This document shows, one piece after another, positions 66-61,905 of a stretch of 64,000 nucleotides of DNA; the stretch's first letter is position 1; each line of letters begins with the position of its first letter. Under the pieces are notes generated by a model that worked only from the letters and a program-made list of their open reading frames with translations, had not been told where the DNA came from and made no database searches. The stretch covers positions 753,931 through 817,930 of the forward strand of contig CP092821.1 of assembly GCA_022530585.1 (NCBI GenBank), read 5' to 3'. Source of the stretch: Candidatus Nealsonbacteria bacterium DGGOD1a (GTDB lineage: Bacteria; Patescibacteriota; Minisyncoccia; Minisyncoccales; UBA5738). Position numbers and translations under genes: made by a program.

Positions 66-1874
66 TTAACTGGCTATTTTACAATAAAAAACTCTTTCAG
101 TATGGCCGTTTGTTTCACTCTTTCCCGCTGTAAATGCTTTATAGTCTCGTTCAAAAATATCAACATCGCCACGGCTCTTTAATGTATTAATAATTTGCGT
201 ATCACTAATTCTTGCATTTGACCTTCCATCTTTTGATTCCCCTGTATTGTTGTATGAAACTAAAATATGCTTACAATTTGCGTTTCCAATTAGATCGGCG
301 AAAGAGCTGGCAGCTGATTTTAGGCAATAATTACTCTTTAGCTGGGCCCTGTCCATTTTTTTTGCTTTTCCAAAAACTGGCGGCTTTCCCCAGTTCGCAA
401 GATTTTCTAATAAATGGTAAGCATCGGCATATTGACGAGAATTATATGGCGGATCCAAATATAGAACATCGCAACTTAATTTTCTTATGAGCTGATTCGC
501 ATCTGTTTGGTAAATTTCATTATTTAAATTATTTTCAACTTTCAAATCTGGCATTAGGAGGCGTAATGGTTGAATCATGTCTAAATCCTTCCTGTAGGCA
601 TCGTAATGACCAACGGTATTCGCCACCTTATCTACCGCATATATTAGTGAAGTTATTAAAACTGTTTTTTCAACTTCATCTTTCGCAATTTCATCAATCT
701 TTTCGCGGATAACCCCTATTTTTTTCGCATTTTCCAAAGTAAAAAAAGTGTTTCCGAAATTTTCAGAAAAATAATTATCGTATCTTGTATCTAAATTATT
801 CAATAACGCTATTTTCTTAGCTATTTCTTCGCTATTCACCTCCGTGATTCCCAAGAAAGCTTTCAATGGAAGATAATTACTTGTGAGAAGGTCGTTTGAA
901 ATAACCTTGATGTTCTTTTTATTAAATCGATTTCCTACCACGCCCGTTCCGGCGAATATGTCACAAAAAGATTCAAATCCGTTACATTTCTCATTCACAA
1001 TATCCTCGATAAATCCGACTAATTTATATTTGTTGCCCAAAAATCTTCTATTCTGTAGCTGGAAAAAACCTGATTTAATGTCGTTATTATGCGAAAAATT
1101 ATTCTTCCGTTCTTTTTTAATAATATTCGGAGAATAGATCGGTTGATCGTTTTTCAATAAACTGAACAAGGAAATTTGGTTGCCATCGGAAATATAATTT
1201 ATTTCTGATACTTGGGAATCGCTTAGGAAACTATGGGTTTCGCTTTCGCTAATGACAATAAAATCAACAATATTAATACCCATGATCTGCCCGGCTTCTA
1301 ATATTTTATTCAAAACCTCGGAATCATGTTGGCTTGCGTTAACATCTCCTGATGGATGATTATGTATTAAAACAACTCCTGCCGCCCTTAACTCAATAGC
1401 GGGGCCAAATATTTCTCGAGGATGAATTAAACTTTTATCTAAAATACCGATAGATACGATTTCCTTTTTTAAAAGTACATTCCGAGCATTTAGATATAGA
1501 CATACTAGATGCTCCTTTTTCTTATCTCTTATATCAGCTACCAGAGCAACTGCCTCTCGCGCAGATTGAATAATGTTGTCTTTAGGATTTAACTCATCAA
1601 CGCAACGCTTTACTAATGCAACAGCTGAAACAATTTGTAAAGCTTTTGCTTTTCCGATTCCCGGAATTTCTAAAAGATCGGCAACGCTTATATTTAAAAA
1701 ATTTTTACCAAATTTCTTGATTATTTGCCCGGAAAGCTCCTTAACGTTTTTCCCTTTAATTCCGCTGCCAATCATGATAGCTAAAAGCTCACTCTTAGAA
1801 AGAGCATCTGACCCCCTTTCGAGGAATCTTTCTCTAGGTCGATCAATTTTTGGGATGTCCTTTAATTTTCCCAT
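66..1874 (-). CDS. RadC-like (HhH + JAB/MPN) domain fused to D12-class (Dam-like) N6-adenine DNA methyltransferase
   Basis: 602-aa ORF. The N-half has RadC hallmarks (KSELLAIMIGSG, helix-hairpin-helix IPGIGKAKA, JAB motif HNHPSG). The C-half has LGNKYKL, the SAM-binding motif FCDIFAGTGVVG and the catalytic LDPPYN (DPPY) motif of Dam-type m6A methyltransferases. Confidence 0.75.
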   Translation of the reverse strand: MGKLKDIPKIDRPRERFLERGSDALSKSELLAIMIGSGIKGKNVKELSGQIIKKFGKNFLNISVADLLEIPGIGKAKALQIVSAVALVKRCVDELNPKDNIIQSAREAVALVADIRDKKKEHLVCLYLNARNVLLKKEIVSIGILDKSLIHPREIFGPAIELRAAGVVLIHNHPSGDVNASQHDSEVLNKILEAGQIMGINIVDFIVISESETHSFLSDSQVSEINYISDGNQISLFSLLKNDQPIYSPNIIKKERKNNFSHNNDIKSGFFQLQNRRFLGNKYKLVGFIEDIVNEKCNGFESFCDIFAGTGVVGNRFNKKNIKVISNDLLTSNYLPLKAFLGITEVNSEEIAKKIALLNNLDTRYDNYFSENFGNTFFTLENAKKIGVIREKIDEIAKDEVEKTVLITSLIYAVDKVANTVGHYDAYRKDLDMIQPLRLLMPDLKVENNLNNEIYQTDANQLIRKLSCDVLYLDPPYNSRQYADAYHLLENLANWGKPPVFGKAKKMDRAQLKSNYCLKSAASSFADLIGNANCKHILVSYNNTGESKDGRSNARISDTQIINTLKSRGDVDIFERDYKAFTAGKSETNGHTERVFYCKIAS

Positions 1875-1999: not shown

Positions 2000-3313
2000 A
2001 TGGAACAAACAATATCGTCGCAAATTCATAGCTCTCCGCCACTTATTGCCGCAAATCTCAAATATTGCCTTTATGCGCGGAAATCGACCGAAGCCGAAGA
2101 TAAGCAGGCACTTTCGATTGAATCGCAGGTAAAGGAAATGCTAGAACTTGCGCGGCGAGATAATCTGAATGTGGTTGAAATCAAACGCGAGTCGCATTCT
2201 TCAAAGGAAGTTGGCCAGCGGCCTATATTTAACCAAATGCTGGGCGAAATCCGCCAAGGAAAGTATAATGCCGTATTGACATGGGCACCGGATCGATTAA
2301 GCCGGAATGCCGGCGATTTGGGATCGGTGGTTGATCTTATAGACCAAAAATTATTGCTGGAAATCAGAACTTATGGCCAAAAATTCACCAATAATCCTAA
2401 TGAGAAATTCCTACTTATGATTTTGGGATCGCAAGCCAAGCTGGAAAACGACAATAAGGCCATAAACGTGAAGCGAGGACTACGAACCCGCTGTGAGATG
2501 GGTTTGAGGCCCGGAGTGGCTCCTACGGGCTATCTGAACGAGAAACACACCGACAGGAAATGCCAAGCGCGAATCGACCCGAAACGTGCGCCGATCATCA
2601 AACAAATGTTCGAAAAAGTGGCATACGAACAATTGAGCGGCCGGAAAGTTTATCGCTGGCTTAGGGAAATTAATTTTGAAACCAAAACTGGCAAACCATT
2701 GGTTCTGGCCAACATTTACCTGATATTTAGAAACCCATTTTATTATGGAGAATTCGAATATCCGGTCGGTAGCGGTAATTGGTACACCGGAAAACATACG
2801 CCAATCATTACTAAAGAACTTTTTGATAGGGTTCAATCCACGATAAATGAAAATTTTGTACCAAAAACCGAAAGCAAAGAATTTGCCTTCACAAAACTAA
2901 TAAAATGCGGCCATTGCGGTTCGGGCATCTCGGCCGATGAAAAATTTAAAAAGCTCAAGGATGGCGGCACAAACCGCCACGTTTATTATTTCTGTACCCA
3001 CGCCAGGAACATTGACTGCAAAAACTCACCAATCAACGAGCAATCCCTAATCAGCGAACTCGTAGAACTGATGGACAAAGTCGATCTTGATGAAATCGGA
3101 ATCCGGTCAAGAATCGAGCAAGAAATCGCCAGATTCAACAAATTCAACGCCGGAGTACTTGGCAACAAACAACAAGCCAACAGCACGGAAATCGACATCA
3201 GAAATTACACCAAATACCTCCTCAAAGAAGGAACAATAATTGAGAAACGAGAATTACTCTCCTGCCTCAAAAGCAAACTGATACTTAGGGACAAAAAAAT
3301 TACTCTGGAATAA
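2000..3313 (+). CDS. large serine recombinase
   Basis: 437-aa ORF. N-terminal resolvase catalytic region (YARKSTEAEDKQALSIESQ ... WAPDRLSRN), a central recombinase domain and a Cys-rich zinc ribbon (CGHCGS ... YYFCTH). Confidence 0.85.
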   Translation: MEQTISSQIHSSPPLIAANLKYCLYARKSTEAEDKQALSIESQVKEMLELARRDNLNVVEIKRESHSSKEVGQRPIFNQMLGEIRQGKYNAVLTWAPDRLSRNAGDLGSVVDLIDQKLLLEIRTYGQKFTNNPNEKFLLMILGSQAKLENDNKAINVKRGLRTRCEMGLRPGVAPTGYLNEKHTDRKCQARIDPKRAPIIKQMFEKVAYEQLSGRKVYRWLREINFETKTGKPLVLANIYLIFRNPFYYGEFEYPVGSGNWYTGKHTPIITKELFDRVQSTINENFVPKTESKEFAFTKLIKCGHCGSGISADEKFKKLKDGGTNRHVYYFCTHARNIDCKNSPINEQSLISELVELMDKVDLDEIGIRSRIEQEIARFNKFNAGVLGNKQQANSTEIDIRNYTKYLLKEGTIIEKRELLSCLKSKLILRDKKITLE

Positions 3314-3460
3314 TCAAAAAGCCAAAACCGCAAAAAATGCAGTTTTGGGCTTCTGAATACGGCACTCAACCGGTATGGCTTAACTGGGTAAGGGATATAC
3401 CACTCGGTCACCCGACTTAACATAGGCTGGCTGGCCATCTGGGGCGAAGTTGGAACATTA
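3313..3460 (-). repeat. copy 1 of a ~120-nt structured direct repeat (candidate small RNA with its own terminator), plus a weak tRNA-3'-end-like remnant at 3434-3460
   Basis: Aligns by eye with 4968-5088 (offset 1655 bp). Shared blocks are CTTCTGAATACGGC.CTCA.CCGGTATG.CTTAACTGGGTA and ACTCGGTCACCCGACTTA.CATAGGCT.GCTG, separated by a ~13-nt divergent patch. The flanking GGGGCGAAGTTGGAACA weakly resembles the tRNA-Gln 3' half. Confidence 0.6.
3321..3350 (-). terminator. intrinsic-terminator-like hairpin at the end of repeat copy 1; also sits 8 nt after the recombinase stop
   Basis: GCCAAAACCGCA-loop-TGCAGTTTTGGGC. Read on the minus strand it is followed by a U-run (the plus-strand AAAAA at 3316-3320). 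Confidence 0.5.
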
Positions 3461-3483
3461 TTCAAAAAATAATACGTTTTAAA

Positions 3484-4809
3484 TTACGTATTTATAAGTG
3501 TATTAAGTTGATTTATTATCATATCTCTAATTATTGGCAAATCACGGGAAGAATAACAGCTATTGTCAAAATAAAAATGTTCATCAAACATCTTGCATAG
3601 TTGATCCTCTATCACATGTTCCAAACCAACTAATAAATCTAATTGATTTCCATTTTTTTCACTATCTCCCACATGTCTGAACATCTCCGCCCAATCATAT
3701 GACCAATAATTCTTTAAATTACCCCTAATAGCAAAATTCTGGATAAAAATTTCTCTCTCTTCTATGTCGCTATATAACTTAATAGTTTCTGGCGAAAGCT
3801 TTTTCTGCTCCTCAATAAAATTAACAAGAGCATTGTATAGATTTTGTTCGAACTTTTGACGGCTGTAATCGGGATAGGCTTTAAGCATATAATCCATTAC
3901 AACGACATTCTGTCGCAAGGTACTTATAGTAATATGGCAATATGTCTCTAGCTGATCTTGTGGTTTATCTTTAGGAGATTCTAGTTGAACGGGATCGGCT
4001 TTTTTCTCAATACTTTCAATCCAGCTCTCAAGTAATTCGCACCACTCTGTCCAATTGCTCATTTCCTCAAGCTTCGGTAAAAGCTCAGAATCTAAGTCTT
4101 TCAAAATTGCGTCATCATTGTAATGCCAATGTCGGCGCAAAGTAATAATATATCTATTTAAGAGTATTGCGTGTCGACGAGAATCGTAATAATTAAATGA
4201 ATTTTTCGCTTTATTTTTAATAAATGCTAATTTTTGATCAATTGGTTTAAGTCGACGATTAAATAAGATGCCTCCAATTTTGTTTAAAAATATTTCGGCA
4301 CTTGTTTGATCCAGCTTGCCATCATTTAAAAATTTAAGATAAGTTGTCGCTGACACATCTATGGCCTCCAATACTTCATTTGCGCCGTATCTTCGCAAAA
4401 GATTACCCAATATGGCTTTACCGCTCTCATTAATGGAATAGGGATTTATTTTTGCATCAGCATATTCTTTGATCATTCCTAAAGTTTTATCATCAAGCTT
4501 AGATAAAGATTTTTTCCATTCAAACATCAATTCGATTTGCTCTCGGCGTTCTTGCAACATTTCCAATTGCTTTCGCTGTTTTTCGACGACTGCATTATCG
4601 CTTAATGGCCTATCGCTTTTACCAATATTACACTCATAACAGCTTGTAATAAGATTTGCGATATCGTTTTCCCCACCTTTGGCAACAGGTTCAATGTGGT
4701 CAACCTGTAAAACAACATCGGGCGCTTTACGTCCGCAATAATTACAAGTAAATTTATCCCGCTTAAACACCTCAAAGCGTATTTTTTTGGTTAATGCAAT
4801 CCTTTCCAT
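3484..4809 (-). CDS. HNH endonuclease-domain protein with an uncharacterised ~370-aa C-terminal region
   Basis: 441-aa ORF. The N-terminus CNYCGRKAPDVVLQVDHIEPVAKGGENDIANLITSCYECNIGK is an HNH (beta-beta-alpha-Me) finger with CxxC...CxxC. I recognise no motif in the rest. Confidence 0.7.
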   Translation of the reverse strand: MERIALTKKIRFEVFKRDKFTCNYCGRKAPDVVLQVDHIEPVAKGGENDIANLITSCYECNIGKSDRPLSDNAVVEKQRKQLEMLQERREQIELMFEWKKSLSKLDDKTLGMIKEYADAKINPYSINESGKAILGNLLRRYGANEVLEAIDVSATTYLKFLNDGKLDQTSAEIFLNKIGGILFNRRLKPIDQKLAFIKNKAKNSFNYYDSRRHAILLNRYIITLRRHWHYNDDAILKDLDSELLPKLEEMSNWTEWCELLESWIESIEKKADPVQLESPKDKPQDQLETYCHITISTLRQNVVVMDYMLKAYPDYSRQKFEQNLYNALVNFIEEQKKLSPETIKLYSDIEEREIFIQNFAIRGNLKNYWSYDWAEMFRHVGDSEKNGNQLDLLVGLEHVIEDQLCKMFDEHFYFDNSCYSSRDLPIIRDMIINQLNTLINT

Positions 4810-4967
4810 GTAATATTAACTATCTAATTATCTCAACCTCGATATTTTCACAAAATAACAAAAAAATCAATAAATACAGTTTTATTGGGATGGAATTTTA
4901 AAAATCAAAATGGCCGAGGCGTCTCGGTTACTTGATTTAGCGTATGAAACTTGCCGAAGCAATTGTA

Positions 4968-5088
4968 ATTGAAAAGCCAAAAACCGCAAAAGATGCGGTT
5001 TTTGGCTTCTGAATACGGCGCTCAGCCGGTATGACTTAACTGGGTAGAGTAACTATGCGACTCGGTCACCCGACTTAGCATAGGCTAG
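4968..5088 (-). repeat. copy 2 of the ~120-nt structured direct repeat, immediately 3' of tRNA-Gln
   Basis: Same blocks as 3313-3433. Substitutions inside the predicted stems keep pairing (for example CGGU...GCCG in copy 1 versus CGGC...GCCG in copy 2), and the terminator stem is perfect in this copy. Confidence 0.6.
4976..5006 (-). terminator. intrinsic terminator of repeat copy 2 and the tRNA-Gln transcript
   Basis: Perfect 13-bp stem GCCAAAAACCGCA / TGCGGTTTTTGGC with a 5-nt loop, followed on the minus strand by UUUUC. Confidence 0.6.
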
Positions 5089-5159
5089 CTGCGGGACATG
5101 GATTCGAACCATGATAAACGGATTCAGAGTCCGTTGTCCTACCATTAGACGATCCCGCA
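5089..5159 (-). tRNA. tRNA-Gln (anticodon CUG)
   Basis: Hand-folded cloverleaf. 7-bp acceptor stem UGCGGGA/UCCCGCA with U1:A72 and G73 (typical of tRNA-Gln), D-loop AAUGGUA, anticodon stem ACGGA/UCCGU with loop CUCUGAA, T-arm CAUGG-UUCGAAU-CCAUG. No encoded CCA. Confidence 0.85.
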
Positions 5160-5171
5160 ATTTATAATGCC

Positions 5172-5256
5172 TGATTTAAGATATAAGATTTATGATTTAC
5201 GAATAACTCAAAATTACGGATTCTTCTTAAATCTTGAATCCTAAATCTTAAATCAA
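5172..5256. repeat. AT-rich palindromic intergenic element, family F (GATTTAAGAT arms)
   Basis: Arms TGATTTAAGAT...ATCTTAAATCA. A sibling copy lies at 9184-9258. Confidence 0.7.
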
Positions 5257-5281
5257 ACAATTCGCATTATAGCGGATTGTG

Positions 5282-6220
5282 TCAGACTTTCAAGTAGCGG
5301 GTAATGGCGATCATACTGGAAAAAATTCCCAGTCCGGCGCCGATACCGATCTGGATTCCGATCAGAGTCCAAATTCCGCCAAAGAAATTCTGCCACAAAC
5401 TCATCCCGGGAAGAATTGCGGCCAGCATCGGGCTCAAATACCAGCAAATCGTCGCCGCGATTAAAAATGAAAACACCGCGCCCAAAATGCCGAAAATCAA
5501 CCCTTCAACCAAAAACTGCCCGCGCACAAACCATCGCGACGCGCCCACAAGCCGCTGGATGGCAATCTCGCGGCCGCGGCTCAAAATAGCCGTCCGGATA
5601 GTGTTATAAGTGACAATCACCGATATAAAGCCGAGAATGGCGAACAATATCAACCCGACCTTCTTGGTGTTTTCGGTGATCGCGAAAATCTTTTGGATTA
5701 CTTCTTTTTTTTCGTTATAATTCACGCGGTTCACCATATCCTTATATTCATCCTGCGCCAGCAACGCGGAAACTTCGTCAAACTTCACCGTTGATACCGC
5801 GCTCACATTCAATAACGAAACAAGCGGATTGCCGTTGATCTCATTGAGCGATTCCAACAAAACCGCGTCATTTTGGTGGCGAATCTTGAAATCTTCCAAC
5901 GCCTGGTCTTTGGACACATACTGCACATTTTCAATGCCCGGGATTTGATTGATTTTGTCCTTAACTCTCAAAATGTCGTTTTCGGAAACGCTCTCGTTGA
6001 AATAAACCGAAATATCCGCCTTGGATTGGAATTCTCTGATCAAAAAAGCGCTCACATCCTTCATCTCGAACAACAGCGAAGTGAGCAAAATCGGAATCAT
6101 TATTATGAAAATATTGGCTATCGCGATTCCGCCGTCGCGGCTCAAATTGTGCCAACCCAAACCGATTATTCTTTTGATGGAAGTAAACATAGAGTTCCTT
6201 GAATAATTTTTAATTGCCAA
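5282..6220 (-). CDS. ftsX: cell-division ABC transporter permease FtsX
   Basis: 312-aa ORF with one N-terminal TM segment, a periplasmic loop and three C-terminal TM segments. It lies immediately downstream of ftsE. The true start may be the internal Met (MFTSIKR). Confidence 0.75.
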   Translation of the reverse strand: MAIKNYSRNSMFTSIKRIIGLGWHNLSRDGGIAIANIFIIMIPILLTSLLFEMKDVSAFLIREFQSKADISVYFNESVSENDILRVKDKINQIPGIENVQYVSKDQALEDFKIRHQNDAVLLESLNEINGNPLVSLLNVSAVSTVKFDEVSALLAQDEYKDMVNRVNYNEKKEVIQKIFAITENTKKVGLILFAILGFISVIVTYNTIRTAILSRGREIAIQRLVGASRWFVRGQFLVEGLIFGILGAVFSFLIAATICWYLSPMLAAILPGMSLWQNFFGGIWTLIGIQIGIGAGLGIFSSMIAITRYLKV

Positions 6221-6343: not shown

Positions 6344-7042
6344 TTAGAGAGCGAACCTTCCCTTCTCTTCGTCGCGGATAACCTTGCCTTTTTCCAGAGT
6401 CACTACGCGTCTTTTAAGTTTATTGACAATCTCGCGGTTATGCGTGGCCAGCACCACGGTCGTGCCCATCTCATTGATTTTGAGCAGAAGCTTTAAAATA
6501 TCCAAAGTGTGATAAGGGTCAAGATTGCCGGTGGGTTCATCGGCCAGCACCACTTCGGGCCGGTGGATCAGCGCGCGCGCAATGGCTACCCGCTGGCGTT
6601 CGCCGCCGGAAAGCTCGGCCGGAAAATTTTTCTCGCGGTCGGACAATTCCACGATCTCCAATATCCGCGGCACATCCCGCCTAATTTCAGTGTCGCTGGC
6701 GCCGATAACTTTCATCACATAGGCGATATTGTCGCGCACGGTCATATTTGGCAAAAGTTTGTAATCTTGAAAAACCGCGCCAATGCTGCGGCGCAAACCA
6801 TTGAGATTCCCTTGCTTCAATTTGTAAATGTTCTGGTCTTTGAATAAAATACTGCCGTTGGTCGGTTTTTCTTCAACCAGCATCAGCTTGAAAAGCGTGG
6901 TTTTGCCCGCGCCCGACCGACCCACCACCGACACAAATTCGCCCGGCATTATGCCAAACGAAACTCCATCCAGCGCCACGATATTGTTGGCGCCCGCGGT
7001 TCGCGAATCATAAACTTTCGTGATGTCGTTAAATTTAATCAT
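6344..7042 (-). CDS. ftsE: cell-division ABC transporter ATPase FtsE
   Basis: 232 aa. Walker [13 protein letters not shown] signature LSGGERQR, Walker [13 protein letters not shown]. Confidence 0.85.
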
Positions 7043-7074
7043 TTGATTGAAACCAATTTACAAATCGCGATTCG

Positions 7075-8143
7075 TTATGCCAGCTTGATTTCCGCTTCGA
7101 TAAATTTGTCCAATTCTCCGTCAAGGACTTCGTCCACTTGCGTCGTTTCCACTCCGGTGCGCGTATCTTTCACCAGCTTGTAGGGATCAAGCACATAGTT
7201 GCGGATCTGGTTGCTCCAACTGGCCGAAACCCGCTCGCCTTTGATCTTCGACAGTTCGGTCTCGCGCGTTTCCCGCATCAGCTGGAACAGCTTCATTTTT
7301 AACAATTCCATGGCCCGGTCGCGGTTTTGCCCCTGCACGCGCTCGGTCTGGCAAGTGGTGAATATCCCTGTCGGGATATGGGTAATGCGCACCGCCGACT
7401 CGCGTTTATTCACATATTGTCCGCCCGGACCGGACGACCGGTAGAAATCAATCCTCAAATCTTCGGGCTTCAATTCCAAATTTTTCAATTCGCTTTTCGG
7501 AAATTCGGGATAAACTTCCACCAGCGCGAATGATGTCTGGCGCAAATGTTTGGCGTTGAACGGAGACAACCTCACCAAACGATGAACGCCGGTTTCTTTT
7601 TTCAAATAACCGTATGCCGTCAATCCTTTAATATATACCGAAACTTCTTTATAGCCAACCCGTCCGTCGGTAACGCCATCGCCAAACGACTCGTGCAAAA
7701 TGGCGGTTTTAAATCCTTTACGCTCGCAATAACGATTGTACATCCGCAAAAGCATCGCGCCCCAATCCTGCGCGTCCTGGCCCCCCGCGCCGGAATGAAT
7801 TGTCAGTATCGCGTTTTCGCGGTCATATTTGCCCGACAAAAAAACAATTTGTTCGATTGCCTCAAGTTTTTTGAGAGCTTGGGCGATCGCTTCGTTGTCC
7901 CCCGCGTCAACCAATAATTCCAGTTCCACTTCCAGATTCTCGAAATCTTCAACCGTTTTTTTCAAACTGGCCAGCTCTTCGCTGACTCGCGACGCCGCAT
8001 CGGGAGAACTCCAAAAATCCGGCCGGGAAGTTTCGATCTCCAATTCTTTTATCTTCTCTTTTTTGGCGCGAAAGTCAAAGACGGTCCATCAAAAGATGGA
8101 GCTTATCCCGCAATTCGTTGATCCGCGAATTTGTGTCCGCCAT
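7075..8143 (-). CDS. prfB: peptide chain release factor 2, requiring a programmed +1 frameshift
   Basis: ORF0 runs from ATG 8143 (MADTNSRINELRDKLHLLMDRL) and ends at CTT TGA C (8080-8074). The +1 frame continues DFRAKKEKIKELEIETS... into the 322-aa ORF, which carries the SPF motif (RLSPFNA) and the GGQ motif (SGPGGQYVNK). Confidence 0.9.
8074..8080 (-). promoter_or_regulatory. RF2 autoregulatory +1 frameshift site CTT-TGA-C
   Basis: The plus-strand GTCAAAG at 8074-8080 is CTTTGAC on the coding strand. Codon 22 of ORF0 is CTT, followed by an in-frame TGA. Confidence 0.85.
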
Positions 8144-8300
8144 AATGGTTTATACAATCCCCACTGCCAATTTACCACACAAAAAACCAAAAGTGAAGCT
8201 TGGTTTTTGATAATTGTGAAATTGAAAATTGATTGTAAATCAAAAATTGATAATCGAAAATTGCAGAAACAACCTTTTGGGTTGTTTTTGCGAATTTGGG

Positions 8301-8373
8301 AGCCGAGAAGAGGGGTCGAACCTCCGACCTGCGGTTTACGATACCGCCGCTCTGCCAACTGAGCTATCTCGGC
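8301..8373 (-). tRNA. tRNA-Thr (anticodon CGU)
   Basis: Hand-folded: acceptor GCCGAGA/UCUCGGC, D-arm GCUC-AGUUGGCA-GAGC, anticodon stem GCGGU/ACCGC with loop AUCGUAA, T-arm GGAGG-UUCGACC-CCUCU, discriminator U. Confidence 0.85.
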
Positions 8374-8475
8374 TTGATAACGGGTTTGCCGCCACGACAA
8401 AATCTTATCACAAGTAAAAGTTTGAAGCAATAAGCCTTATTAAAAAATGCCCTCACGGGCAAGATTTAAAAACTT

Positions 8476-8631
8476 GAGAGGATGATGGGGACGATCGGGT
8501 TTACATCCGGCGCTGTAATTTTTATATACTCACCGGGAAACCCTTTGGACAGCGCTTTCGGAAACTGTCCCGGAGGCGAAGCCTGAAGGACGGTAACCGG
8601 CAACTGTCATATTCTTCCTCATCATTCTCCC
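8476..8631. ncRNA. unassigned ~155-nt structured RNA candidate (multi-helix, GC-richer than its surroundings)
   Basis: A long closing helix pairs GAGAGGATGATGGGG (8476-8490) with CCTCATCATTCTCCC (8617-8631). Nested helices are GGGTTT 8497-8502 / GAAACCC 8537-8543, CCGG 8507-8510 / CCGG 8533-8536, and GGACAG 8547-8552 / CTGTCC 8565-8570. CTGTCA at 8604-8609 is an alternative partner for the last one. No ORF; strand and family are undetermined. Confidence 0.45.
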
Positions 8632-8783: not shown

Positions 8784-8946
8784 TTTAATGGCATTATGAA
8801 TTTAAATTCGAATACTGTTACAGGGGTCGCGCTAAAGCTTCGCAGGGGAACGACCCCAAATGCAAAAAGCGCTACCCCGGTAAGTGGTTACAAAAACCGG
8901 TGGAAACCGAAAATCGGCTTGCCGCCGGCCAAGTTCCCGGGGAAAA

Positions 8947-9177
8947 TCATGGCTGCGGGTTTTGGTTTCCCGGCGTTTCCTTTTCGTAATCCGGCCGTAT
9001 CTTTTTTCCGGGAATGCCCAGAGCCAGAAAAAAACCGCCCGCGATCAAGCTCATAACTGTCGCCACCTCGAATTGCGTTGCGGACAAAACCGAATTCTTG
9101 TGCGCCATTATCCCCAACCCGAACCCGATCAAGATTCCGCCCAGGATTGTAAAAATAAATTTAATGAATCTGTTCAT
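8947..9177 (-). CDS. small hypothetical membrane protein (2 predicted TM helices)
   Basis: 76-aa ORF with two hydrophobic stretches (FIFTILGGILIGFGLGIM, VMSLIAGGFFLALGI). No recognisable family. Confidence 0.4.
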   Translation of the reverse strand: MNRFIKFIFTILGGILIGFGLGIMAHKNSVLSATQFEVATVMSLIAGGFFLALGIPGKKIRPDYEKETPGNQNPQP

Positions 9178-9183
9178 AAATTC

Positions 9184-9258
9184 ATGATTTAAGATTTATG
9201 ATTTAAGGTTCAAGAATGAATTAAAAATCATAAATCATATCTCTTAAATCTTAAATCA
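9184..9258. repeat. AT-rich palindromic intergenic element, family F
   Basis: ATGATTTAAGATTTATGATTTAAG...CTCTTAAATCTTAAATCA; a sibling of 5172-5256. Confidence 0.7.
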
Positions 9259-9317
9259 AAGCGACAAAAAAACGAGATTACTCTATTTTATCACAAACAA
9301 AGATAAAGTCAGGCAAA

Positions 9318-12158
9318 TTAATGTTTTTTGGAAAAATCACAGATGGCTTTGAACTCGCACCACTCGCACTGCCAACCCGGCTTGGCGCGGAAATCGCTTT
9401 TGCTGATTTCCTTGATTATGGAAGCGATCTTGTCGCGCTCGTCAACCACATCTTGCCCGCTCGGAGAAAATGATAACGGCTTGCATTCGTTTAAATAAAA
9501 ATAAGTCAATTTCTCCGCGTTCAAGTCGAATACTTCCTTGGCCGCAATCTGGTAAATCATCAACTGCATCTTGTCTTCGGGCCGCAACCGCTCCTTGGCG
9601 GCGCCGGTTTTGTAATCAATGATTTCAATCCCGCGTCCGCTTTCATCAATGCGGTCAATCTTGCCCGTGATGGAATAGCCGTCGATTTTCAGATTGAAAT
9701 CCTGCTCCAGCGCCGGCACGCCATTGATGGTGTGTATCCTCGGCCGGCGGACCGAAAAATCTTTCCAAAAATTTTTTAACGATTCCAGCCCTTGTTTGTA
9801 ATATGTTTCTTTTTCGCTCTTGCCGTCGTACCATTCGTCGATCCAATTTTTTTTGTAAATATCCGCCAGCTGTTTGAAACTCCCTTTTTTGTTTCCCATT
9901 TCAAACAAGAATTCGTAAAGCGCGTTATGCATTGTTTTGCCATAGCTGAAAAACGCTTTACCGCGCGTGGGAATCCGCAAAATATGGGCAAATTTGTATT
10001 GCATCGGACACTTCTCGAACGCCGCCAACTGCGTGAACGAAAAGTGGCCCGGCAAAACTCCGCGCGCTTGCGGCTTGCGGTAGTTGTTGGCAACGCGCAC
10101 CGTACGCACTTCATCTTCATGGTTGTCGCCGTTATAACCCATTTCATGCAAAAACCGCGAAATCTTTTTGGGTCTTATCCCGCCATAGTCCGCGGCCGAG
10201 GTCAAATACAATCCGCGCCGCGCCCGAGTCATTGCCACATAAAATAAACGCCTTTCTTCTTCCAAATGCGCGTCGCCGGCCGGAACCGGATCGTTTGCCA
10301 ATTCCTCGGGAATTTCGATTTCGTCGCCGCGCGCGCCGGTCGGAAATTTCCGATCAACAAGATTGGCGATGAAAACATACTCGAATTCCAGCCCTTTGGC
10401 GGAATGAATCGTCATGATCTGCACCGCGTCCGGAGTTTTAATCGGATCGAAATTCAATTTGCCTTCCTCTCCGGATTCGATTTCCATATCAAGTTCATCA
10501 ACAAATTTTTTCAAATTGGGATCGATATTGGCCGCTTCAAAATCCTTGATTTTGCCATAAAATTGGCCTATAAAATCAATCTCGCCGCGGCGATCCTGGC
10601 GCACCAATTGCTCCAGATAACCCGAATCTTCCAAAAATGACAGCATCAATTCGGAAACTTTTCTTTCCCGCACGATCGCGCCGTGCTTTGACGCCATTTC
10701 CAGCAATTTGTTGATGCCCGCGATGCCGTGCTCGGTCAGTCCGCTTATCAACGGCAGTTCGTTTAACGACTCATAAATCGATTGGGATTTTTTATACCCG
10801 TACTGGGTAATTTTAACGATATCCGCGTTGGGAATCATCAAAAACGGCATATTGATCACCCGCCACACCGCCGAACTTTCGTGGTAATTGTTTAAAAACT
10901 TCAGGTAGGAAATGATGTCCAGCACCGCGGGCTTGGAATATAAACCTTTTAACGCCATAAATTGCGCCGGCACGCCCGACCGCTCGCACGCGCGCGCGAA
11001 TTGGCCGGCGCTCTCGTTGGCCCGCAGTAAAATCGCGAAATCGCCGTAACCGCAATTTTTTTCCTCCTTTAGAATTTTAATGATTTCATTGACCACGCCC
11101 TGCACTTCCTGCTCCACGCTTTTAAAATGCAAATGCCTGATGACGCCATCGCAATCCGCGTCAGCGATCAAACGCTTGTCTATTTTATCAATAAATTCTA
11201 AACGCCGCGGATTGTTGGCCTGGATAAAATTATAAGCCTGATCCAAAATATTCTGGCATGAACGGTAATTGCGCGTCAGCACCACGCTCTCCGCTTCGGG
11301 AAAATCTCTCTTAAACTGGACGATATTGCCAAAACTGGCGCCGCGCCAGCGATAAATCGCCTGGTCGTCGTCGGCGCATACGGTAAGATTGTTGTTCGGG
11401 GCGGCGATAAGCTTAACCAGCTCGTATTGTATCCAATTGGTGTCTTGAAACTCATCCACCAGAATATATTTGAATTGCTTGCGGAATTTTTCCAGAACCG
11501 CGGGCCGTTTTTTAAAAAGATCAACCGCGTAATTAAGCAAATCGCCGAAATCCAGCAAATTATTTTCCATTAATAAATTCCGATAATGTTCATAAGCGCG
11601 GACCAGTTCAAGCAACCTTTCTTTTTCTTCAACCGCGCCTTTGGCATACTTTAAATAATCCGCGGGAAATATTCCCTGGTCTTTGCACCGCGAGAAATGA
11701 TTGAGTAGGGCGTGGATGAACTTTGCCGGATTGCCCAGCGGTTTGTAATATTTCAACTTCAAGCGGTCAAGATTGTTCCGCACCAAAAGCCACGCCGCGG
11801 TTTGGTCAACCAGCTTGAAATTTCCCGGAATACCGATATCCAGCCCGTTTTGGCGCAAAACCCGCTCGCAAAACGAATGGAAAGTGCATATCCAAAGATC
11901 GGCATAGGCAAGCGACAACAGATCGTCCACGCGGTCTTCCATTTCGCCCGCGGCTTTGTCGGTGAAAGTAAGCGCCAAAATCTCCTCGGGCTTGGCCAAT
12001 CCTTGCTCAACAAGCCAGGCGATCCGGTGCGTGATTGCCCTGGTCTTCCCGGTCCCCGCCCCCGCCACGATCAAAAGCGGCCCCTCGCCATGGGTAACGG
12101 CGGTTTTTTGCTCCTTATTTAACTTTTCCAAATCAATCGCCATACAAAAACTTGACAA
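9318..12158 (-). CDS. UvrD/PcrA-type superfamily-1 helicase fused to a C-terminal PD-(D/E)XK (Cas4/AddB-like, Cys4) nuclease domain
   Basis: 946 aa. The N-terminus has Walker A AGAGTGKT plus ILVDEFQDTN, TRNYRS and the TIHSAKGLEF helicase motifs. The C-terminus has FEKCPMQYKF ... IIDYKTG ... WQCEWCEFKAICD, a C...CxxCx5C cluster typical of iron-sulfur RecB-family nucleases. The start may be the Met at 12143 (MAIDLEKL). Confidence 0.8.
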   Translation of the reverse strand: MSSFCMAIDLEKLNKEQKTAVTHGEGPLLIVAGAGTGKTRAITHRIAWLVEQGLAKPEEILALTFTDKAAGEMEDRVDDLLSLAYADLWICTFHSFCERVLRQNGLDIGIPGNFKLVDQTAAWLLVRNNLDRLKLKYYKPLGNPAKFIHALLNHFSRCKDQGIFPADYLKYAKGAVEEKERLLELVRAYEHYRNLLMENNLLDFGDLLNYAVDLFKKRPAVLEKFRKQFKYILVDEFQDTNWIQYELVKLIAAPNNNLTVCADDDQAIYRWRGASFGNIVQFKRDFPEAESVVLTRNYRSCQNILDQAYNFIQANNPRRLEFIDKIDKRLIADADCDGVIRHLHFKSVEQEVQGVVNEIIKILKEEKNCGYGDFAILLRANESAGQFARACERSGVPAQFMALKGLYSKPAVLDIISYLKFLNNYHESSAVWRVINMPFLMIPNADIVKITQYGYKKSQSIYESLNELPLISGLTEHGIAGINKLLEMASKHGAIVRERKVSELMLSFLEDSGYLEQLVRQDRRGEIDFIGQFYGKIKDFEAANIDPNLKKFVDELDMEIESGEEGKLNFDPIKTPDAVQIMTIHSAKGLEFEYVFIANLVDRKFPTGARGDEIEIPEELANDPVPAGDAHLEEERRLFYVAMTRARRGLYLTSAADYGGIRPKKISRFLHEMGYNGDNHEDEVRTVRVANNYRKPQARGVLPGHFSFTQLAAFEKCPMQYKFAHILRIPTRGKAFFSYGKTMHNALYEFLFEMGNKKGSFKQLADIYKKNWIDEWYDGKSEKETYYKQGLESLKNFWKDFSVRRPRIHTINGVPALEQDFNLKIDGYSITGKIDRIDESGRGIEIIDYKTGAAKERLRPEDKMQLMIYQIAAKEVFDLNAEKLTYFYLNECKPLSFSPSGQDVVDERDKIASIIKEISKSDFRAKPGWQCEWCEFKAICDFSKKH

Positions 12159-14204: not shown

Positions 14205-14228
14205 ATTGTTTAAAAATTTAAAATGCAA

Positions 14229-14306
14229 AAATCAAAATGAAAAGTTAAAATGAAGAAACGACATTTTTAATTTTAAACTGTCATTTTTCATTTTGATTTT
14301 TACATT
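14229..14306. repeat. AT-rich palindromic intergenic element, family E (CAAAATGA.../...TCATTTTG arms)
   Basis: AAAATGCAAAAATCAAAATGAAAAG...CTGTCATTTTTCATTTTGATTTTTACATTTT. Siblings at 14712-14830, 39058-39190, 60336-60458 and 61785-61905. Confidence 0.75.
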
Positions 14307-14711
14307 TTAAATTTTTTTGTTAATTAAATCATCCAAACTCACGGAATCGAGAAAATCGCTGACCGCGGCTTGCATTTTGATCCACAGGCATTTGGTTAAA
14401 CAATCGTTTTGGCGCGGACATTTGCCGTCGATGCACTTAACTTTCGTGGCCGGATTTTCAATGGCGTTAAAAATCTCTCCGATCTTAATTTTGTCCGCGC
14501 TTTTGCCCATAATATATCCGCCGCGCACGCCCTTTTTGGCCGCCACCAAATTCGCTTTCAAAAGCTTGGCGAAAATTTTTTCCAAATAATCCGCGGGCAT
14601 TTTCTCGCGGATGGCAATCTCGCGCACCGACACCGCGCGGTTATCAATTGAATTTTGCGCCAAATAAGCCATCGCCCGCAACCCGTATTGCACCTTGGTG
14701 GATATCTTCAT
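14307..14711 (-). CDS. Rrf2-family transcriptional regulator (IscR-like)
   Basis: 134 aa. N-terminal winged-helix signature MKISTKVQYGLRAMAYLA; first gene of the Fe-S operon. Confidence 0.8.
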   Translation of the reverse strand: MKISTKVQYGLRAMAYLAQNSIDNRAVSVREIAIREKMPADYLEKIFAKLLKANLVAAKKGVRGGYIMGKSADKIKIGEIFNAIENPATKVKCIDGKCPRQNDCLTKCLWIKMQAAVSDFLDSVSLDDLINKKI

Positions 14712-24773: not shown

Positions 24774-24856
24774 GATAACCTTGAATAATTTTCAATTTCC
24801 AATTTTCAATTTTCAATTAAAAATCCGGAAATCGAAATTCAGTATAAATTTAAAAA
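24774..24856. repeat. partial family D element (TTTTCAATTT arms) filling the rpsE-rplO spacer
   Basis: AATAATTTTCAATTTCCAATTTTCAATTTTCAATTAAAAATCCGGAAATCGAAATTCAG. At 83 bp the spacer is too short to hide an L30 gene. Confidence 0.6.
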
Positions 24857-39057: not shown

Positions 39058-39190
39058 AAAAATACAAAATGTAAAAATCAAAAATCAAAATGACAATGCA
39101 AAATTTAAAAATGCCGCGATATGGACATTTTACAACTCTGCGTTGTCATTTTCCATTTTGATTTTTCAATTTTAAATTTAATAATATTCC
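39058..39190. repeat. family E palindromic element (rpsG-fusA spacer)
   Basis: AAAATGTAAAAATCAAAAATCAAAATGACAATGCAAAATTTAAAAATGCCGCGATATGGACATTTTACAAC...GTTGTCATTTTCCATTTTGATTTTTCAATTTT. Confidence 0.8.
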
Positions 39191-40659: not shown

Positions 40660-43600
40660 TTAAAGGCTTTCCCCGCTTTCGGAGACATCTTCGCTCCCTC
40701 CGACAGATTCGGATATTTCTTCTTCGGATACTTCTTCTCCAGATACTTCTTCTCCAGATACTTCTTCCGAAACTGTATCGTCCGCGGTTTCCTCCTCTTC
40801 CAACTCTTCGCCGTCCGCGGCGGGATCAATCGTTTCTTGCGCCGCTTCGCTTGCCGCATCGCTTTTGTCATTTTCGTCTTCCGCCGCGCCTTCCTCGTCA
40901 TCGGCGCTATCGGAAGACCCCGTGTTCTCGACAGAATCGCCAGCGGGCGCAGGATCGCCTTCGTTTGAAGATTGGCCATTGTTATTTTCCAAATTTCCGG
41001 CGGCGGAACCTGTCTCCGGCGATTCGCTTGATCCCGTATTTTGGGCCGGTTCGTCGCCGCAAGCCCCCTCGGTTTTTTCCCAAACGCCATTCTCGATCCA
41101 AGTGCAATAGACTTCTCCGGTCGCTTTATCCACCATTTCCAATTGCTCGACCCGCGCGGTCTTGGCGCTGAAAGTTTCCACCACCACCCTTCGCAAGCTG
41201 GCCGCGCCATCATAAATCGCCAGCCCCAAAGATTCCAAGATATTTCTCACCTTGGCCAGCAAACTGTTTTCGGATTCTTCCGCCGAATCAACAGTCGTGG
41301 TGGAATTTATCAACCCTTGTTCGGTCAACTGCAAACTTATATTGTCAATCCGCGATTGCTGGGCTTTGGCCACTTCCAACAGATAGGCGGTGAATTTGGG
41401 ATAATCAAGCGACAGATAGCCGCTGGCGTTTTGGCCGACAAGTTCGGGCATCACCGCCTGCACTTCCTGCGCGATCATACCGATCTCGCGCTGGGCACCA
41501 AGATTCTTGGCCGCGTCCAGAGAAGTGTCCCAGTTATAATAAATGCCGCGCAGTTTGCTCAAATTTCCGATCACATCCATCTCGTCGGCAATCGATCCGA
41601 TATTGATTTTCAGCCGGATATCCGACGATGAATTGGTCAATACGCCGTCGGCATCCGAATACACCGCGCGATTGCCCTCGCCGGCAAGCGTCCCAATCCC
41701 CACATTGCCGGCCCCGTCGATGCGCAGGCGTTCGGCAATCGCCGCCCCGCCCGTTCTGGTCCAGAAAGTCAATGCCGATGTTTCACTCCCCGATGTTGCC
41801 GTGGTCAAAAGATTGCCAATCCGGCCCGTGAGCTCATCCGTCCCCGCGCTGTCTTCGGCGTAAAAATTAATTAACCCGCCAATGCCGTCCGCCGCCGTGC
41901 CCGAAGTTTGCCGCCGCAAGCGCAAAACCTCCGCCACGGTATCGGTGGTAGCGGGATTGATGGACAGATACCCGGCAATGCCATTCGTGGAACCGCCGTA
42001 AACACCAAAGCTGTTCGTGGAATTGCCGTAAACGCCATAGCCATTCGTGGAACCGCCGTAAACACCAACATTGTTCGCGGAAAGGCCATAAATGCCATAG
42101 TTGTTCGTAGAACTGCCATAAATGCCATAGCTGTTCGTGGAATTGCCGTAAACGCCAAAGCTGTTCGTGGAACCGCCACGGACACCATAGCTGTTCGTGG
42201 AAAAGAAATTACCCGCGTAATAGGTTCTTCCCCGAATCACATAGCGCAGGCGAACATCGGTATTCGTCCAGCTGGCGCCGTCGGCAGAAGTCGCGCCCAT
42301 ATTTGACGACGCATCCGAATCCAAAATAATGTTCCCGCCCGTCGGCGCGGCGCTATATTTCAACACCAGCCAGTATTTTGTCCCGCTTACCATCGTGTAG
42401 CTCGTGCCCATCGACAAGATTTGATAACTTGTTGTGAGCGTGCCGAATTTAACGCTATTGCCTGTCGCCAGCGCGGCCCCGGTTGGTTTTGACGGCGAAC
42501 CGCCGTCATCGGCGTAAATGTAGCCGGTGAGAGTTGCCGTGGTATTGGTAATATCCGCGCTTTCCTTAACCCTGACGGTGAAATCACCCATTGTGTGCGC
42601 GTCGCTGGCGGTAAATTGCACCGCCTGATACATTGTCGCCATTGTCGCGTCCGTGCCGGTGAACGCCGAACCGTCCTGCAAATCAGACGCGGTTTGCGAC
42701 GCGTTAATCGACGGATAGGTTTCCTGATTAACCGTCTGCGCCGAATTGATATTCCCGGCCACATCCAACTTATACCCCGCCGCCGGACTCGTCGTGCCGA
42801 TGCCGACATTGCCGTTACCTAAAAGAGTCATTACCGTTGTTTGCCCAGTAAAAGGCGCAACACCTCCATCATGTACCCTAAATTGCATATTATTTGCCGC
42901 ACCTCCACCGCCCTGAAGACCGTTTGAATAGATTGAATTATAGCGAACATCGGAGTCCGATCTTCCCATACGAATCTGTTCAACTGTTTGGCCAATAGTT
43001 GTTGCCGCGCGTGAATATATAGTTCCTACTACATCAAGTTTCTGCACTGGACTCGTCGTCCCAATCCCGACATTGCCGGAAGAATCAATGCGCAGGCGTT
43101 CGTCCCAGCTTCCCGCGTTTCTTGTCGCGAATGCCAGCGCGCCGCTTTGCGCTCCATCCGCATGGCTCACGCCCACCAAATCAATGCCGGCAACGGTTTG
43201 CACCGCGCCGCTTAAATTCGCCTGCCCGAAAGCAAGACCGATGGTATTGTTGGCGGTGGTATCGGTATTCACGATCCCCAGCAAACTCGCGTCGCCGATA
43301 TCCGTGCTGGAATTTGCCCCGGCAACATTAAACTTGTAATTCGGCGTTGTCGTGCCGATGCCCAGGCGGCTGTTGGTATCATCCCAATACATTCCGTCAA
43401 ACGCGGTCCACGCGCCGGCGTTGTTGTAGAGCAGTTGGCCTTCCGCGCCCGAAGGCAGAGCGCCGCCCGCGGTAAGATTGACGCCGTTCCAAACCAAATT
43501 GCCCGAAACATTGTAGAGCCTGTCGACAATCGTTTCCGGCGCGGTGGTCTGCGCCAACCGCAACCGCCCGTTCACATCCAACAACTCCGCCGGCGTTGTC

Positions 43601-50217: not shown

Positions 50218-50300
50218 ACCAAATTGCCCGAAACATTGTAGAGCTTGTCGGCAATCGTTTCCGGCGCGGTGGTCTGCGCCAACCGCAACCGCCCGTTCAC
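50111..50300 (-). repeat. perfect 95-bp tandem duplication (50111-50205 = 50206-50300) at the junction of the two giant ORFs
   Basis: Both copies read ACGCCGTTCCAAACCAAATTGCCCGAAACATTGTAGAGCTTGTCGGCAATCGTTTCCGGCGCGGTGGTCTGCGCCAACCGCAACCGCCCGTTCAC. AC dinucleotide microhomology lies at the boundaries. Confidence 0.95.
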
Positions 50301-60335: not shown

Positions 60336-60458
60336 GAATTTAGTTAAAAATTAAAAAACCAAAGATCAAAATGACAATGCAAAATGTTAAAATGTCGCGA
60401 TTTAAACATTTTTCAACTTTAAATTGTCATTTTCCATTTTGATTTTTGCATTTTACAT
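60336..60458. repeat. family E palindromic element
   Basis: GATCAAAATGACAATGCAAAATGTTAAAATGTCGCGATTTAAACATTTTTCAACTTTAAATTGTCATTTTCCATTTTGATTTTTGCATTTTACATTT; it is the reverse complement of 61785-61905. Confidence 0.85.
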
Positions 60459-61627: not shown

Positions 61628-61784
61628 GATATTATTTATTATTTATTATTTTTACTTATTCGAACTTATCCAAAATAAATCCGATATGCCGGTTTGATTG
61701 AAACGACCTTTAACCGGCCTAGATTGCTTTGCTTTATATAGAGTAATTGAGCTTAAAAATTAAGTCAAGGGCGATAAATTAATT

Positions 61785-61905
61785 AAAAATGCAAAAATCA
61801 AAATGAAAAATGACAATTTAAAGTTGAAAAATGTTCAAATCGCGACATTTTAACATTTTGCATTGTCATTTTGATCTTTGATTTTTACATTTTACATTTT
61901 ACATC
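61785..61905. repeat. family E palindromic element
   Basis: AAAATGCAAAAATCAAAATGAAAAATGACAATTTAAAGTTGAAAAATGTTCAAATCGCGACATTTTAACATTTTGCATTGTCATTTTGATCTTTGATTTTTACATTTT. Confidence 0.85.

Follow-up and report, generated by a model that had tools for sequence, protein, structure and literature searches.

The question raised by this locus is why a gene for an HNH-domain protein, situated next to the tRNA-Gln(CUG) gene of Candidatus Nealsonbacteria bacterium DGGOD1a, should be enclosed by two diverged copies of one repeat of approximately 120 nt. The locus lies within a stretch of 64,000 nt of contig CP092821.1 (positions 753,931 to 817,930), referred to here as the window, the source of which, a metagenome-assembled genome, is placed by its FtsX homologs among the Minisyncoccales, within the candidate phyla radiation (CPR), or Patescibacteria. 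A preliminary description of this DNA had offered two readings, namely a duplicated structured RNA transcribed together with the tRNA, or the scars of an insertion at the tRNA that delivered the HNH gene along with a replacement for its target. Here, the locus was compared with related contigs and loci, which are labelled with L-numbers. On balance, the comparison makes it probable, though by no means certain, that what is repeated is an integrase-proximal end module, belonging to a family of CPR integrative elements that encode a large serine recombinase (LSR) and dock at the CCA end of tRNA-Gln. That judgement covers the class of explanation, with much less confidence being placed on any exact history.

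The two copies of the repeat

The copies lie on the minus strand at 3312-3430 (copy 1) and 4968-5088 (copy 2), and are approximately 86% alike, much as first described. By BLAST they are 85.7% identical over 126 nt (E ~1e-34), the mean column identity of an alignment that includes the flanks is 84%, and within the 82-nt body 70 of the 82 positions are the same. The 16- to 18-mers conserved between the copies occur exactly twice each in the window, against an expectation of 0 to 0.5, and no third copy is present within 10 kb beyond the window start. All that separates the copies is the HNH open reading frame (ORF) of 441 aa (3484-4809, minus strand), with 158 nt upstream and approximately 50 nt downstream of it.

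Copy 2 starts exactly at the 3' end of the tRNA-Gln(CUG) gene (5089-5159, minus strand; predicted by ARAGORN, and scoring 65.8 bits with the Rfam tRNA model) and comprises, in order, CTA, hairpin A (5053-5083), a linker, hairpin B (5013-5032) and a terminator with its stem at 4976-5006 and a T-run extending to approximately 4971. Copy 1 has the same order, with CCA, hairpin A (3396-3425; a 2-nt deletion makes it weaker), the linker, hairpin B (3357-3376) and a terminator (3322-3348). A covariance model of the module, R1, scores 108 bits on copy 2 and 90 bits on copy 1. In both copies the unit is closed by a strong hairpin with a T-run, that is, by the GC-containing stem-loop and U-run of an intrinsic terminator, copy 1 having 11 pairs plus CTTTTTGATT. 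Both copies fold at -46 to -48 kcal/mol (z ~-5), for which the terminator hairpin is responsible.

The start of the repeat corresponds to the CCA position of the tRNA, which reads CTA in copy 2 (5086-5088) and CCA in copy 1 and the relatives; CCA is encoded in copy 1, L105, L103, L115 and L008. Since the live tRNA-Gln of the window reads CTA, it would depend on CCA addition. The repeat itself begins at CAGC(C/T)A and shares just CAG and CCA with the tRNA. At the other end, the homology between the copies stops at ATTA, which in copy 1 is the site of the recombinase stop codon. Copy 2 is followed by no recombinase gene and in this sense is an orphan.

Association of the module with a serine recombinase

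Comparison of the relatives indicates that the module is tied to the serine recombinase next door and not to the HNH gene. The recombinase (437 aa; 2000-3313, plus strand) has the full set of LSR domains, namely Resolvase (PF00239, 2.3e-20), Recombinase (PF07508, 2.3e-15) and Zn_ribbon_recom (PF13408, 2.8e-07), and matches the phrog_95 integrase at 1.8e-62. Since the stop codon of the gene directly adjoins the copy 1 terminator, the latter is regarded as bidirectional and common to the convergent recombinase gene. Homologs of the protein number more than 8000 at E below 1e-30; the best 120 of these are 76-97% identical and bear the names of many CPR lineages, namely the Paceibacterota, Nomurabacteria, Staskawiczbacteria, Portnoybacteria, Nealsonbacteria and Shapirobacteria, which seems an unusual degree of conservation for an integrase.

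Arrangements with a single copy of the unit, as had been anticipated in relatives, do occur, on L105 and L115. On the latter, an IMG/VR contig, an intact tRNA-Gln(CUG) is followed by the unit, its terminator and a convergent LSR gene, whose product is 81% identical to that of the window by tblastn and 79% over the full alignment; this contig appears to be the uninterrupted form of the copy 1 side. L105 and L106, in which FtsX is 68% identical and the ftsEX synteny is the same, have tRNA-Gln and one unit (76 of 82 positions the same as copy 2), followed by a different terminator and other genes. On L008, a clean 21-nt fragment of the tRNA-Gln 3' end precedes the unit (77 of 82 positions the same as copy 2), the terminator and only the last LSR codons, while L107 has kept only the first ~25-28 nt of the unit. 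L133 and L124, with LSRs 62% and 47% identical to that of the window, have the LSR gene convergent to tRNA-Gln or a fragment of it, and trailers that are too diverged to align.

Further copies proved scarce. Model R1 revealed no additional full copies over 36 sources, and ten near-identical places of the LSR homolog P0227 added one junction and no new full module. Pattern scans of genome and metagenome collections yielded one real relative, L008, the matches on L007 and L009 being chance matches in coding DNA. A 14-mer scan of viral contigs returned 93 stretches, none of the 80 listed being confirmed by BLAST, and scans of viral contigs with degenerate patterns returned only L128, which is the same contig as L115, and one chance match in a terminase gene.

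The junction at the tRNA end

The boundary of the unit is also seen in a set of 24 contigs (L160-L168) that carry an identical LSR gene, the product of which is 78% identical to that of the window. The order on these contigs is a pseudo-T-arm, CAGCC(A/G), TCATATGCTAAGTCAGGTGACTGAG, GTAC.., PIN_12, a gene for a 91-aa protein and the LSR gene, and only the first ~28 nt of the unit are present, after the pseudo-tRNA end. To the right of CAGCCR the contigs are identical; the left side exists in two diverged variants, and for two of the contigs CAGCCR is precisely where the sequence stops.

The distance between GTTC and the end of CCA is 29 nt in copy 1, L160 and L161, as opposed to 24 nt in real tRNA-Gln genes. 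Structural work on the LI integrase (Rutherford et al. 2013) reportedly places the outer (zinc-ribbon) motif of an attP half-site 5 bp further out than that of attB. If this 5-bp rule holds, the sequence that precedes copy 1, a pseudo-T-arm (GTTCCAACTTCGCCCCAGATGGCCAGCCA; 3428-3456, minus strand) lying directly 5' of the repeat, would be a candidate P-type recombinase arm, and the T-loop and acceptor strand of the tRNA would be a B-type arm. The ~28 nt after CCA could then represent the P' arm; the homology ends right after GACYGAG in both L107 and L160, as would be expected of the outer edge of a half-site.

The module, as envisaged here, would start at the CCA position with ~28 nearly invariant nt (..TATGCTAAGTCRGGWGACYGAG) acting as the recombinase-bound arm, and would continue with the rest of hairpin A, a linker that is free to vary, the conserved hairpin B and a bidirectional terminator, which would also end the convergent LSR gene. 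Once behind tRNA-Gln, it would replace the trailer of the tRNA, and its terminator would keep transcripts of the tRNA from extending antisense into the gene for the integrase.

The arrangement was compared with the attachment (att) sites of LSRs of the phiC31, Bxb1, A118/LI and SPbeta type. Besides the full LSR domain set of the window gene, the points of likeness are a conserved arm of ~28 nt at a sharp junction next to the 3' end of the integrase gene, a pseudo-arm that exceeds the tRNA-side arm by 5 nt, which may correspond to the difference between attP and attB half-sites, and homology that ends ~25-28 nt from the junction. However, known attP and attB sites normally have only a short core in common, as against 120 nt at 86% identity for the window repeats; in addition, the window has a second conserved hairpin outside any core site, and a partner site was not found at the far end. 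A second comparison is with the islands that tyrosine integrases insert at tRNA genes, which share with the window a foreign island of low G+C content at a tRNA, direct repeats around an insert, re-use of the same tRNA in relatives and incoming DNA that carries a replacement of the displaced sequence. Unlike these, the window island has a serine recombinase as its only integrase, a domain search having found no tyrosine integrase, its repeat holds just the last 3 nt and CCA of the tRNA and is otherwise trailer, and the recombinase lies outside the segment bounded by the repeats.

Several observations touch on the same junction. Assembly breaks occur at CAGCCR at the ends of L163 and L168, and independent assemblies break at the start of the T-arm (L002 starts at window position 5117) and inside the module (L004 starts at 5022); such repeated breaks hint at strain-level alternative joins. 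A motif of the form GATTCGAAC(C/G)GC(C/A)CTAGGGCGACCGAG is found beside the unit at L008:~753-780 (minus strand) and L107:~4507-4540, sharing GGGYGACCGAG with hairpin A, while a shorter motif, (A/G)ACCGAGAC, is found also in a hairpin of the window at 4914-4927 and in the trailer of L133. Both motifs may be partner att arms. The hairpin at 4914-4927 (CCGAGACGCCTCGG) is terminator-like, the second such structure of the locus, and lies within the AT-rich spacer upstream of the HNH gene (4810-4967, minus strand).

The HNH gene and the origin of the second copy

The preliminary description had allowed for a homing-type insertion that delivered the HNH gene. The 441-aa protein, which has an N-terminal HNH domain (Pfam HNH, 1e-13; phrog_16986, 6.8e-64), would in that case be a free-standing homing endonuclease that cleaved the tRNA-Gln site or its vicinity, repair then copying in the gene and, with it, a target replacement resistant to cleavage. 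Indeed, the gene is of low G+C content and flanked by target-like repeats, and other nuclease genes are found at this tRNA in relatives: in L104, L111 and L114 an older tRNA-Gln, split in its anticodon loop, encloses a GIY-YIG gene and an intact replacement tRNA-Gln, and in L105 a LAGLIDADG-like ORF adjoins the tRNA. However, the HNH family (~420-450 aa) is conserved over its full length (~37-65% identity) across Patescibacteria, Bacteroidota and Vibrio, and the closest homologs (64% and 56% identical) occur in an unrelated, conserved order of helicase, 257-aa protein, YceG and HNH genes with no tRNA or unit nearby, as opposed to a consistent linkage with the target locus. Repair, moreover, does not create direct repeats of 120 nt, and the repeat is tied to the recombinase rather than to the HNH gene. 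Homing by the HNH protein is considered improbable. Since the family is widespread, and its closest homologs stand in unrelated synteny without tRNA or element, the HNH gene is probably generic cargo that was inserted, and probably not the agent of insertion. The idea of an insertion scar at a tRNA site, with a carried replacement, was nevertheless right in kind, given the repeat at the tRNA end, the low-G+C insert, the single-copy relatives and the repeated targeting of the locus.

A further comparison is offered by the free-standing homing endonucleases of Patescibacteria and the group I introns in their tRNA genes (PMC13011429), in that the window nuclease gene adjoins a tRNA and the GIY-YIG genes of the relatives sit in the tRNA-Gln anticodon loop with a replacement tRNA. 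They differ in that the window gave no match to a group I intron model and in that the HNH family is not linked to tRNA genes elsewhere. The main text of that 2026 paper on Patescibacteria tRNA introns does not contain 'Gln' (PMC13011429).

A guide RNA of the HEARO/IscB type was considered for the HNH protein and rejected, there being no RuvC domain by Pfam and no Rfam match. Separately, a non-coding stretch of ~500 nt, conserved from one species to the other, lies 3' of HNH homologs in two Patescibacteria species (L153:6330-6906 and L157:6360-6950), in the latter adjoining a gene with an FGE-sulfatase domain (6948-8138), which is followed by bAvd (8249-8584) and a reverse transcriptase gene (8920-9831); the L157 stretch may be part of a diversity-generating retroelement.

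Contigs with FtsX 68-74% identical to that of the window keep the ftsE-ftsX-tRNA-Gln synteny and differ sharply in what follows the tRNA. In L103 and L109 this is an LSR of another family, 26% identical to that of the window, the ORF of which runs antisense into or through tRNA-Gln and is followed by defence genes; L104, L111 and L114 have the GIY-YIG arrangement described above. The unit is absent from behind tRNA-Gln in these five equally close relatives. Taken together, the contigs show that the tRNA-Gln locus is an insertion hotspot at which the unit is not universal. The LSRs of the second family are 505-510 aa in length (L103:6968-8500 and L109:5767-7284, both minus strand), the L103 ORF holding a copy of the T-arm, TTGGTTCGAATCCAAGAC, at 7384-7400, and the genes that follow are of the helix-turn-helix and GmrSD/Mrr types. 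The GIY-YIG cassettes, from related Minisyncoccales, lie at L114:1262-1766, L104:7155-7670 and L111:3041-3437; the pseudo-tRNA parts of these loci have a GC-rich hairpin insert of ~30 nt, ccccgccatagcgggatcccgctggggcggg, in the D-loop or T-loop, and the whole resembles a cassette in which a nuclease gene travels with a replacement for its target.

If the module is the end of an LSR element, copy 1, with its LSR gene and a pseudo-T-arm as P-type arm, looks like an intact attP, and copy 2, an orphan module on a real tRNA, looks like an attL without its integrase. It would follow that a segment of ~1.66 kb, one period of the repeat, was inserted between the tRNA and a resident module; this segment would comprise a module, the 158-nt spacer, the HNH gene and the ~50 nt that include the P-type arm. 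Insertion by recombination in or at the module would account for the direct repeats on either side of the HNH gene. The simplest route would be Campbell-type homologous recombination via the module, involving either a small circle or a second related element that was later reduced or deleted, with action of the LSR in trans being a less likely route.

Several points weigh against an origin as an LSR element end, or at least against a simple version of it. The canonical reaction of attP with attB does not by itself give this topology, and an intact attP-like site in the chromosome needs an extra, undocumented step. The copy 1 site looks like attP and not attL, as opposed to the hybrid attL and attR, with a far-end partner, that an integrated element would have; indeed, the far end of the island (L005:20650-21065) has no partner site, tRNA fragment or module copy, and no excision or integration junctions were observed. 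Serine integrases need no homology of 120 bp between attP and attB and usually lack it. The likeness to the tRNA 3' half that had been noticed beside copy 1 (GGGGCGAAGTTGGAAC), the basis of the pseudo-T-arm, is not significant alone, 520 of 5000 shuffles scoring as well (p ~0.1). On L105 the module stands behind tRNA-Gln with no recombinase nearby, which would also fit an element owned by the host. Finally, hairpin B is conserved at 55-80 nt from the junction, which is too far for a core site, such that something else constrains it. The conservation of hairpin B is the main fact that an LSR end module does not explain, and for this reason the RNA readings stay alive.

Constraint on the hairpins and possible roles as RNA

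The constraint on the unit was assessed against L115. The LSR genes of the window and L115 share 79% identity as protein and 69% as DNA, with third codon positions at 38.5%, i.e. saturated. Over this distance, the window copies retain 21-22 of 28 plus 6-7 of 8 positions in the hairpin A block and 22-25 of 28 in the hairpin B block, but only 2-4 of 15 in the linker. Since the blocks are conserved where the linker varies and third codon positions saturate, hairpins A and B are under purifying selection, and the linker is neutral.

In the five distinct sequences available, a model with two hairpins, CUAUGC-UAAG-UCGG-GUGA-CCGA-GUG-GCAUAG (A) and AUAC(C)GGC-UGAGC-GCCGUAU (B), has 98.8% of its cells paired. 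There is one compensatory pair in each hairpin (G-C to A-U, and G-C to U-A), and the GNRA loop is kept (GUGA to GAGA). The exchange of U.G for C-G noted earlier in the CGG(U/C)...GCCG stem is present, at columns 64/70. However, the changes in the terminator stem that had been taken for compensation are really an A-to-C change and a 1-nt deletion, with no true double substitution. Likewise, a 13-nt patch said to be completely different between the copies, while still forming a hairpin tip, is partly conserved and is no tip, since in the comparative model it consists of the 3' strand of a stem and the start of the variable linker; the actual tip of hairpin A, GUGA, is invariant between the window copies. 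The claim that RNA structure is under selection in both copies is not supported, copy 1 having ~10 private changes at sites invariant in the other three window-type copies, including the 2-nt deletion in hairpin A. All of its base pairs but one survive these changes, and its three stem substitutions are all C-to-U, giving G.U on the tRNA-sense strand only.

Such features could be those of a structured 3' trailer RNA encoded by the host, co-transcribed with tRNA-Gln and freed by 3' processing, which elements target or copy and of which the two copies arose by gene duplication. The contrast between the two conserved hairpin blocks and the variable linker, the pairing and the compensatory changes, and the strand on which the G.U pairs of copy 1 are tolerated all point in this direction, as does the L105 unit, which stands in conserved host synteny without a recombinase. 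Furthermore, the tRNA and unit are bracketed by the terminator and by a promoter-like site (TTGAAA-16-TATAAT; 5266-5293, minus strand), a putative promoter ~105 nt upstream of tRNA-Gln that matched 11/12 in a consensus scan. Against this, all of the covariation comes from one divergent sequence, L115, and 21 of 500 shuffles do as well; a long-range pairing incompatible with the model scores just as well; and, its terminator removed, the ~90-nt body shows no folding advantage over shuffled sequence (z -1.6 and -0.2). Rfam matched only tRNAs across the window at the gathering score, and for 3200-5300, searched with E values up to 10, it gave only chance sub-threshold matches (miRNA, IS128 and ohsC models on terminators and AT hairpins), with no family for the unit among HEARO/IscB omega RNA, group I intron, signal recognition particle (SRP), riboswitch or other models. 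The absence of the unit from behind tRNA-Gln in L103, L104, L109, L111 and L114 is also unfavourable, the shortened versions with only the first ~28 nt (L107, L160) fit a DNA site better, and in L160 and L161 these nucleotides belong to the mobile side of the junction. A host trailer RNA is accordingly regarded as a rather unlikely origin of the repeat. As to the structured RNA first proposed, what stands are two conserved hairpin blocks with a compensatory pair each; what weakens it is that the evidence comes from one divergent homolog, that Rfam is empty and that a DNA dyad would fit as well, since hairpin A would look no different if it were a dyad recognised by a dimeric protein. A small RNA function of the unit is possible.

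The nearest known counterparts are RNAs from tRNA 3' external transcribed spacers (3'ETS), such as 3'ETS-leuZ of E. coli. The window unit likewise adjoins the 3' end of a tRNA, in the same orientation, with an intrinsic terminator and conserved hairpins, and differs in travelling with a mobile element and in being inferred purely from DNA. CPR bacteria are not known to have the Hfq/RNase E context of 3'ETS-leuZ.

A further reading is that the unit and terminator form a conditional terminator, akin to an attenuator or riboswitch, which sets antisense read-through from the tRNA promoter into the recombinase or HNH gene and so tunes the integrase. UAUGC at columns 7-11 can pair with GCAUA at columns 31-35 or 55-59, the latter pairing excluding the base of hairpin B, and both alternatives fit the five sequences; a terminator follows the unit in every case, joined in copy 1 and L115 by a convergent LSR gene. 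However, there are no matches to ligand-binding families in Rfam, in each of the window copies the alternative pairing is weaker, column 55 being U or C, and the scheme is drawn purely from five sequences. It is regarded as improbable.

Other candidates for the content of the repeat were rejected. A small ORF is excluded by stops in all frames on both strands, by direct reading, and by the 2-nt indel between the copies, and ARAGORN and Rfam were negative for a disguised tRNA, SRP RNA or transfer-messenger RNA. Between the promoter-like site and tRNA-Gln there is a long AT-rich inverted repeat (5166-5259); matches to plant microRNA precursors at this position were sub-threshold and were dismissed as chance matches to a long hairpin.

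The surrounding island and other repeats in the window

On the host side of tRNA-Gln are ftsX, ftsE, prfB, tRNA-Thr and a UvrD-PD-(D/E)XK helicase gene, mostly of 42-55% G+C. The other side holds the HNH gene (28-38% G+C in 300-nt windows), the LSR gene and a RadC-Dam methyltransferase fusion (66-1874, minus strand), the first gene of the remaining island, which past the window continues with genes for an AlwI-type restriction enzyme, an N4/N6 methyltransferase, an ISL3 transposase, NucS_C, a terminase-like protein and a ParB-methyltransferase. Everything beyond tRNA-Gln is a foreign island of HNH, LSR, restriction-modification, transposase and phage-remnant genes, a context supported by the G+C content of the HNH gene relative to that of the host genes and by the presence of the LSR, restriction-modification, ISL3 and terminase-remnant genes.

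Repeats of other kinds also occur in the window. Two huge adjacent ORFs of 3185 and 1501 aa (40660-54707, minus strand) contain many diverged internal repeats, comprising a 300-nt unit present nine times, 51-nt motifs present 29 times and a 30-nt tandem array at 41954-42233, and probably encode a giant repetitive surface protein. A dispersed family of AT-rich repeats of ~50-115 nt (AAATTTAAAATGCAAAAATCAAAATG... and its complement) occupies a dozen intergenic sites, including 14206-14314, 24779-24839, 39060-39180, 60347-60473 and 61775-61900.

Implications for mobile elements of the CPR

Events in which an att region is duplicated at a tRNA hotspot are already known. What appears to be undescribed in the searchable literature is an LSR family that docks at the CCA end of a CPR tRNA-Gln, the high conservation of its integrase and the two-hairpin module at its end. 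The mobile elements of CPR/Patescibacteria are poorly charted, and the locus joins a widespread, conserved LSR to a defined docking point at the tRNA-Gln CCA end and to a conserved end module. It would thereby provide a testable attP/attB pair for a lineage without genetic tools, and would explain the mosaics of nuclease and defence genes that surround tRNA-Gln in these genomes. A bolder proposal, advanced only tentatively and with the odds set well against it, is that LSR elements across the CPR carry a two-hairpin RNA module which becomes the trailer of tRNA-Gln and is transcribed from the host tRNA promoter only when the element is integrated. Such a module could secure 3' maturation of the tRNA or control read-through against the convergent integrase gene; if it is indeed an expressed RNA, the locus would be an example of an element plugging its own RNA into a host tRNA transcription unit.

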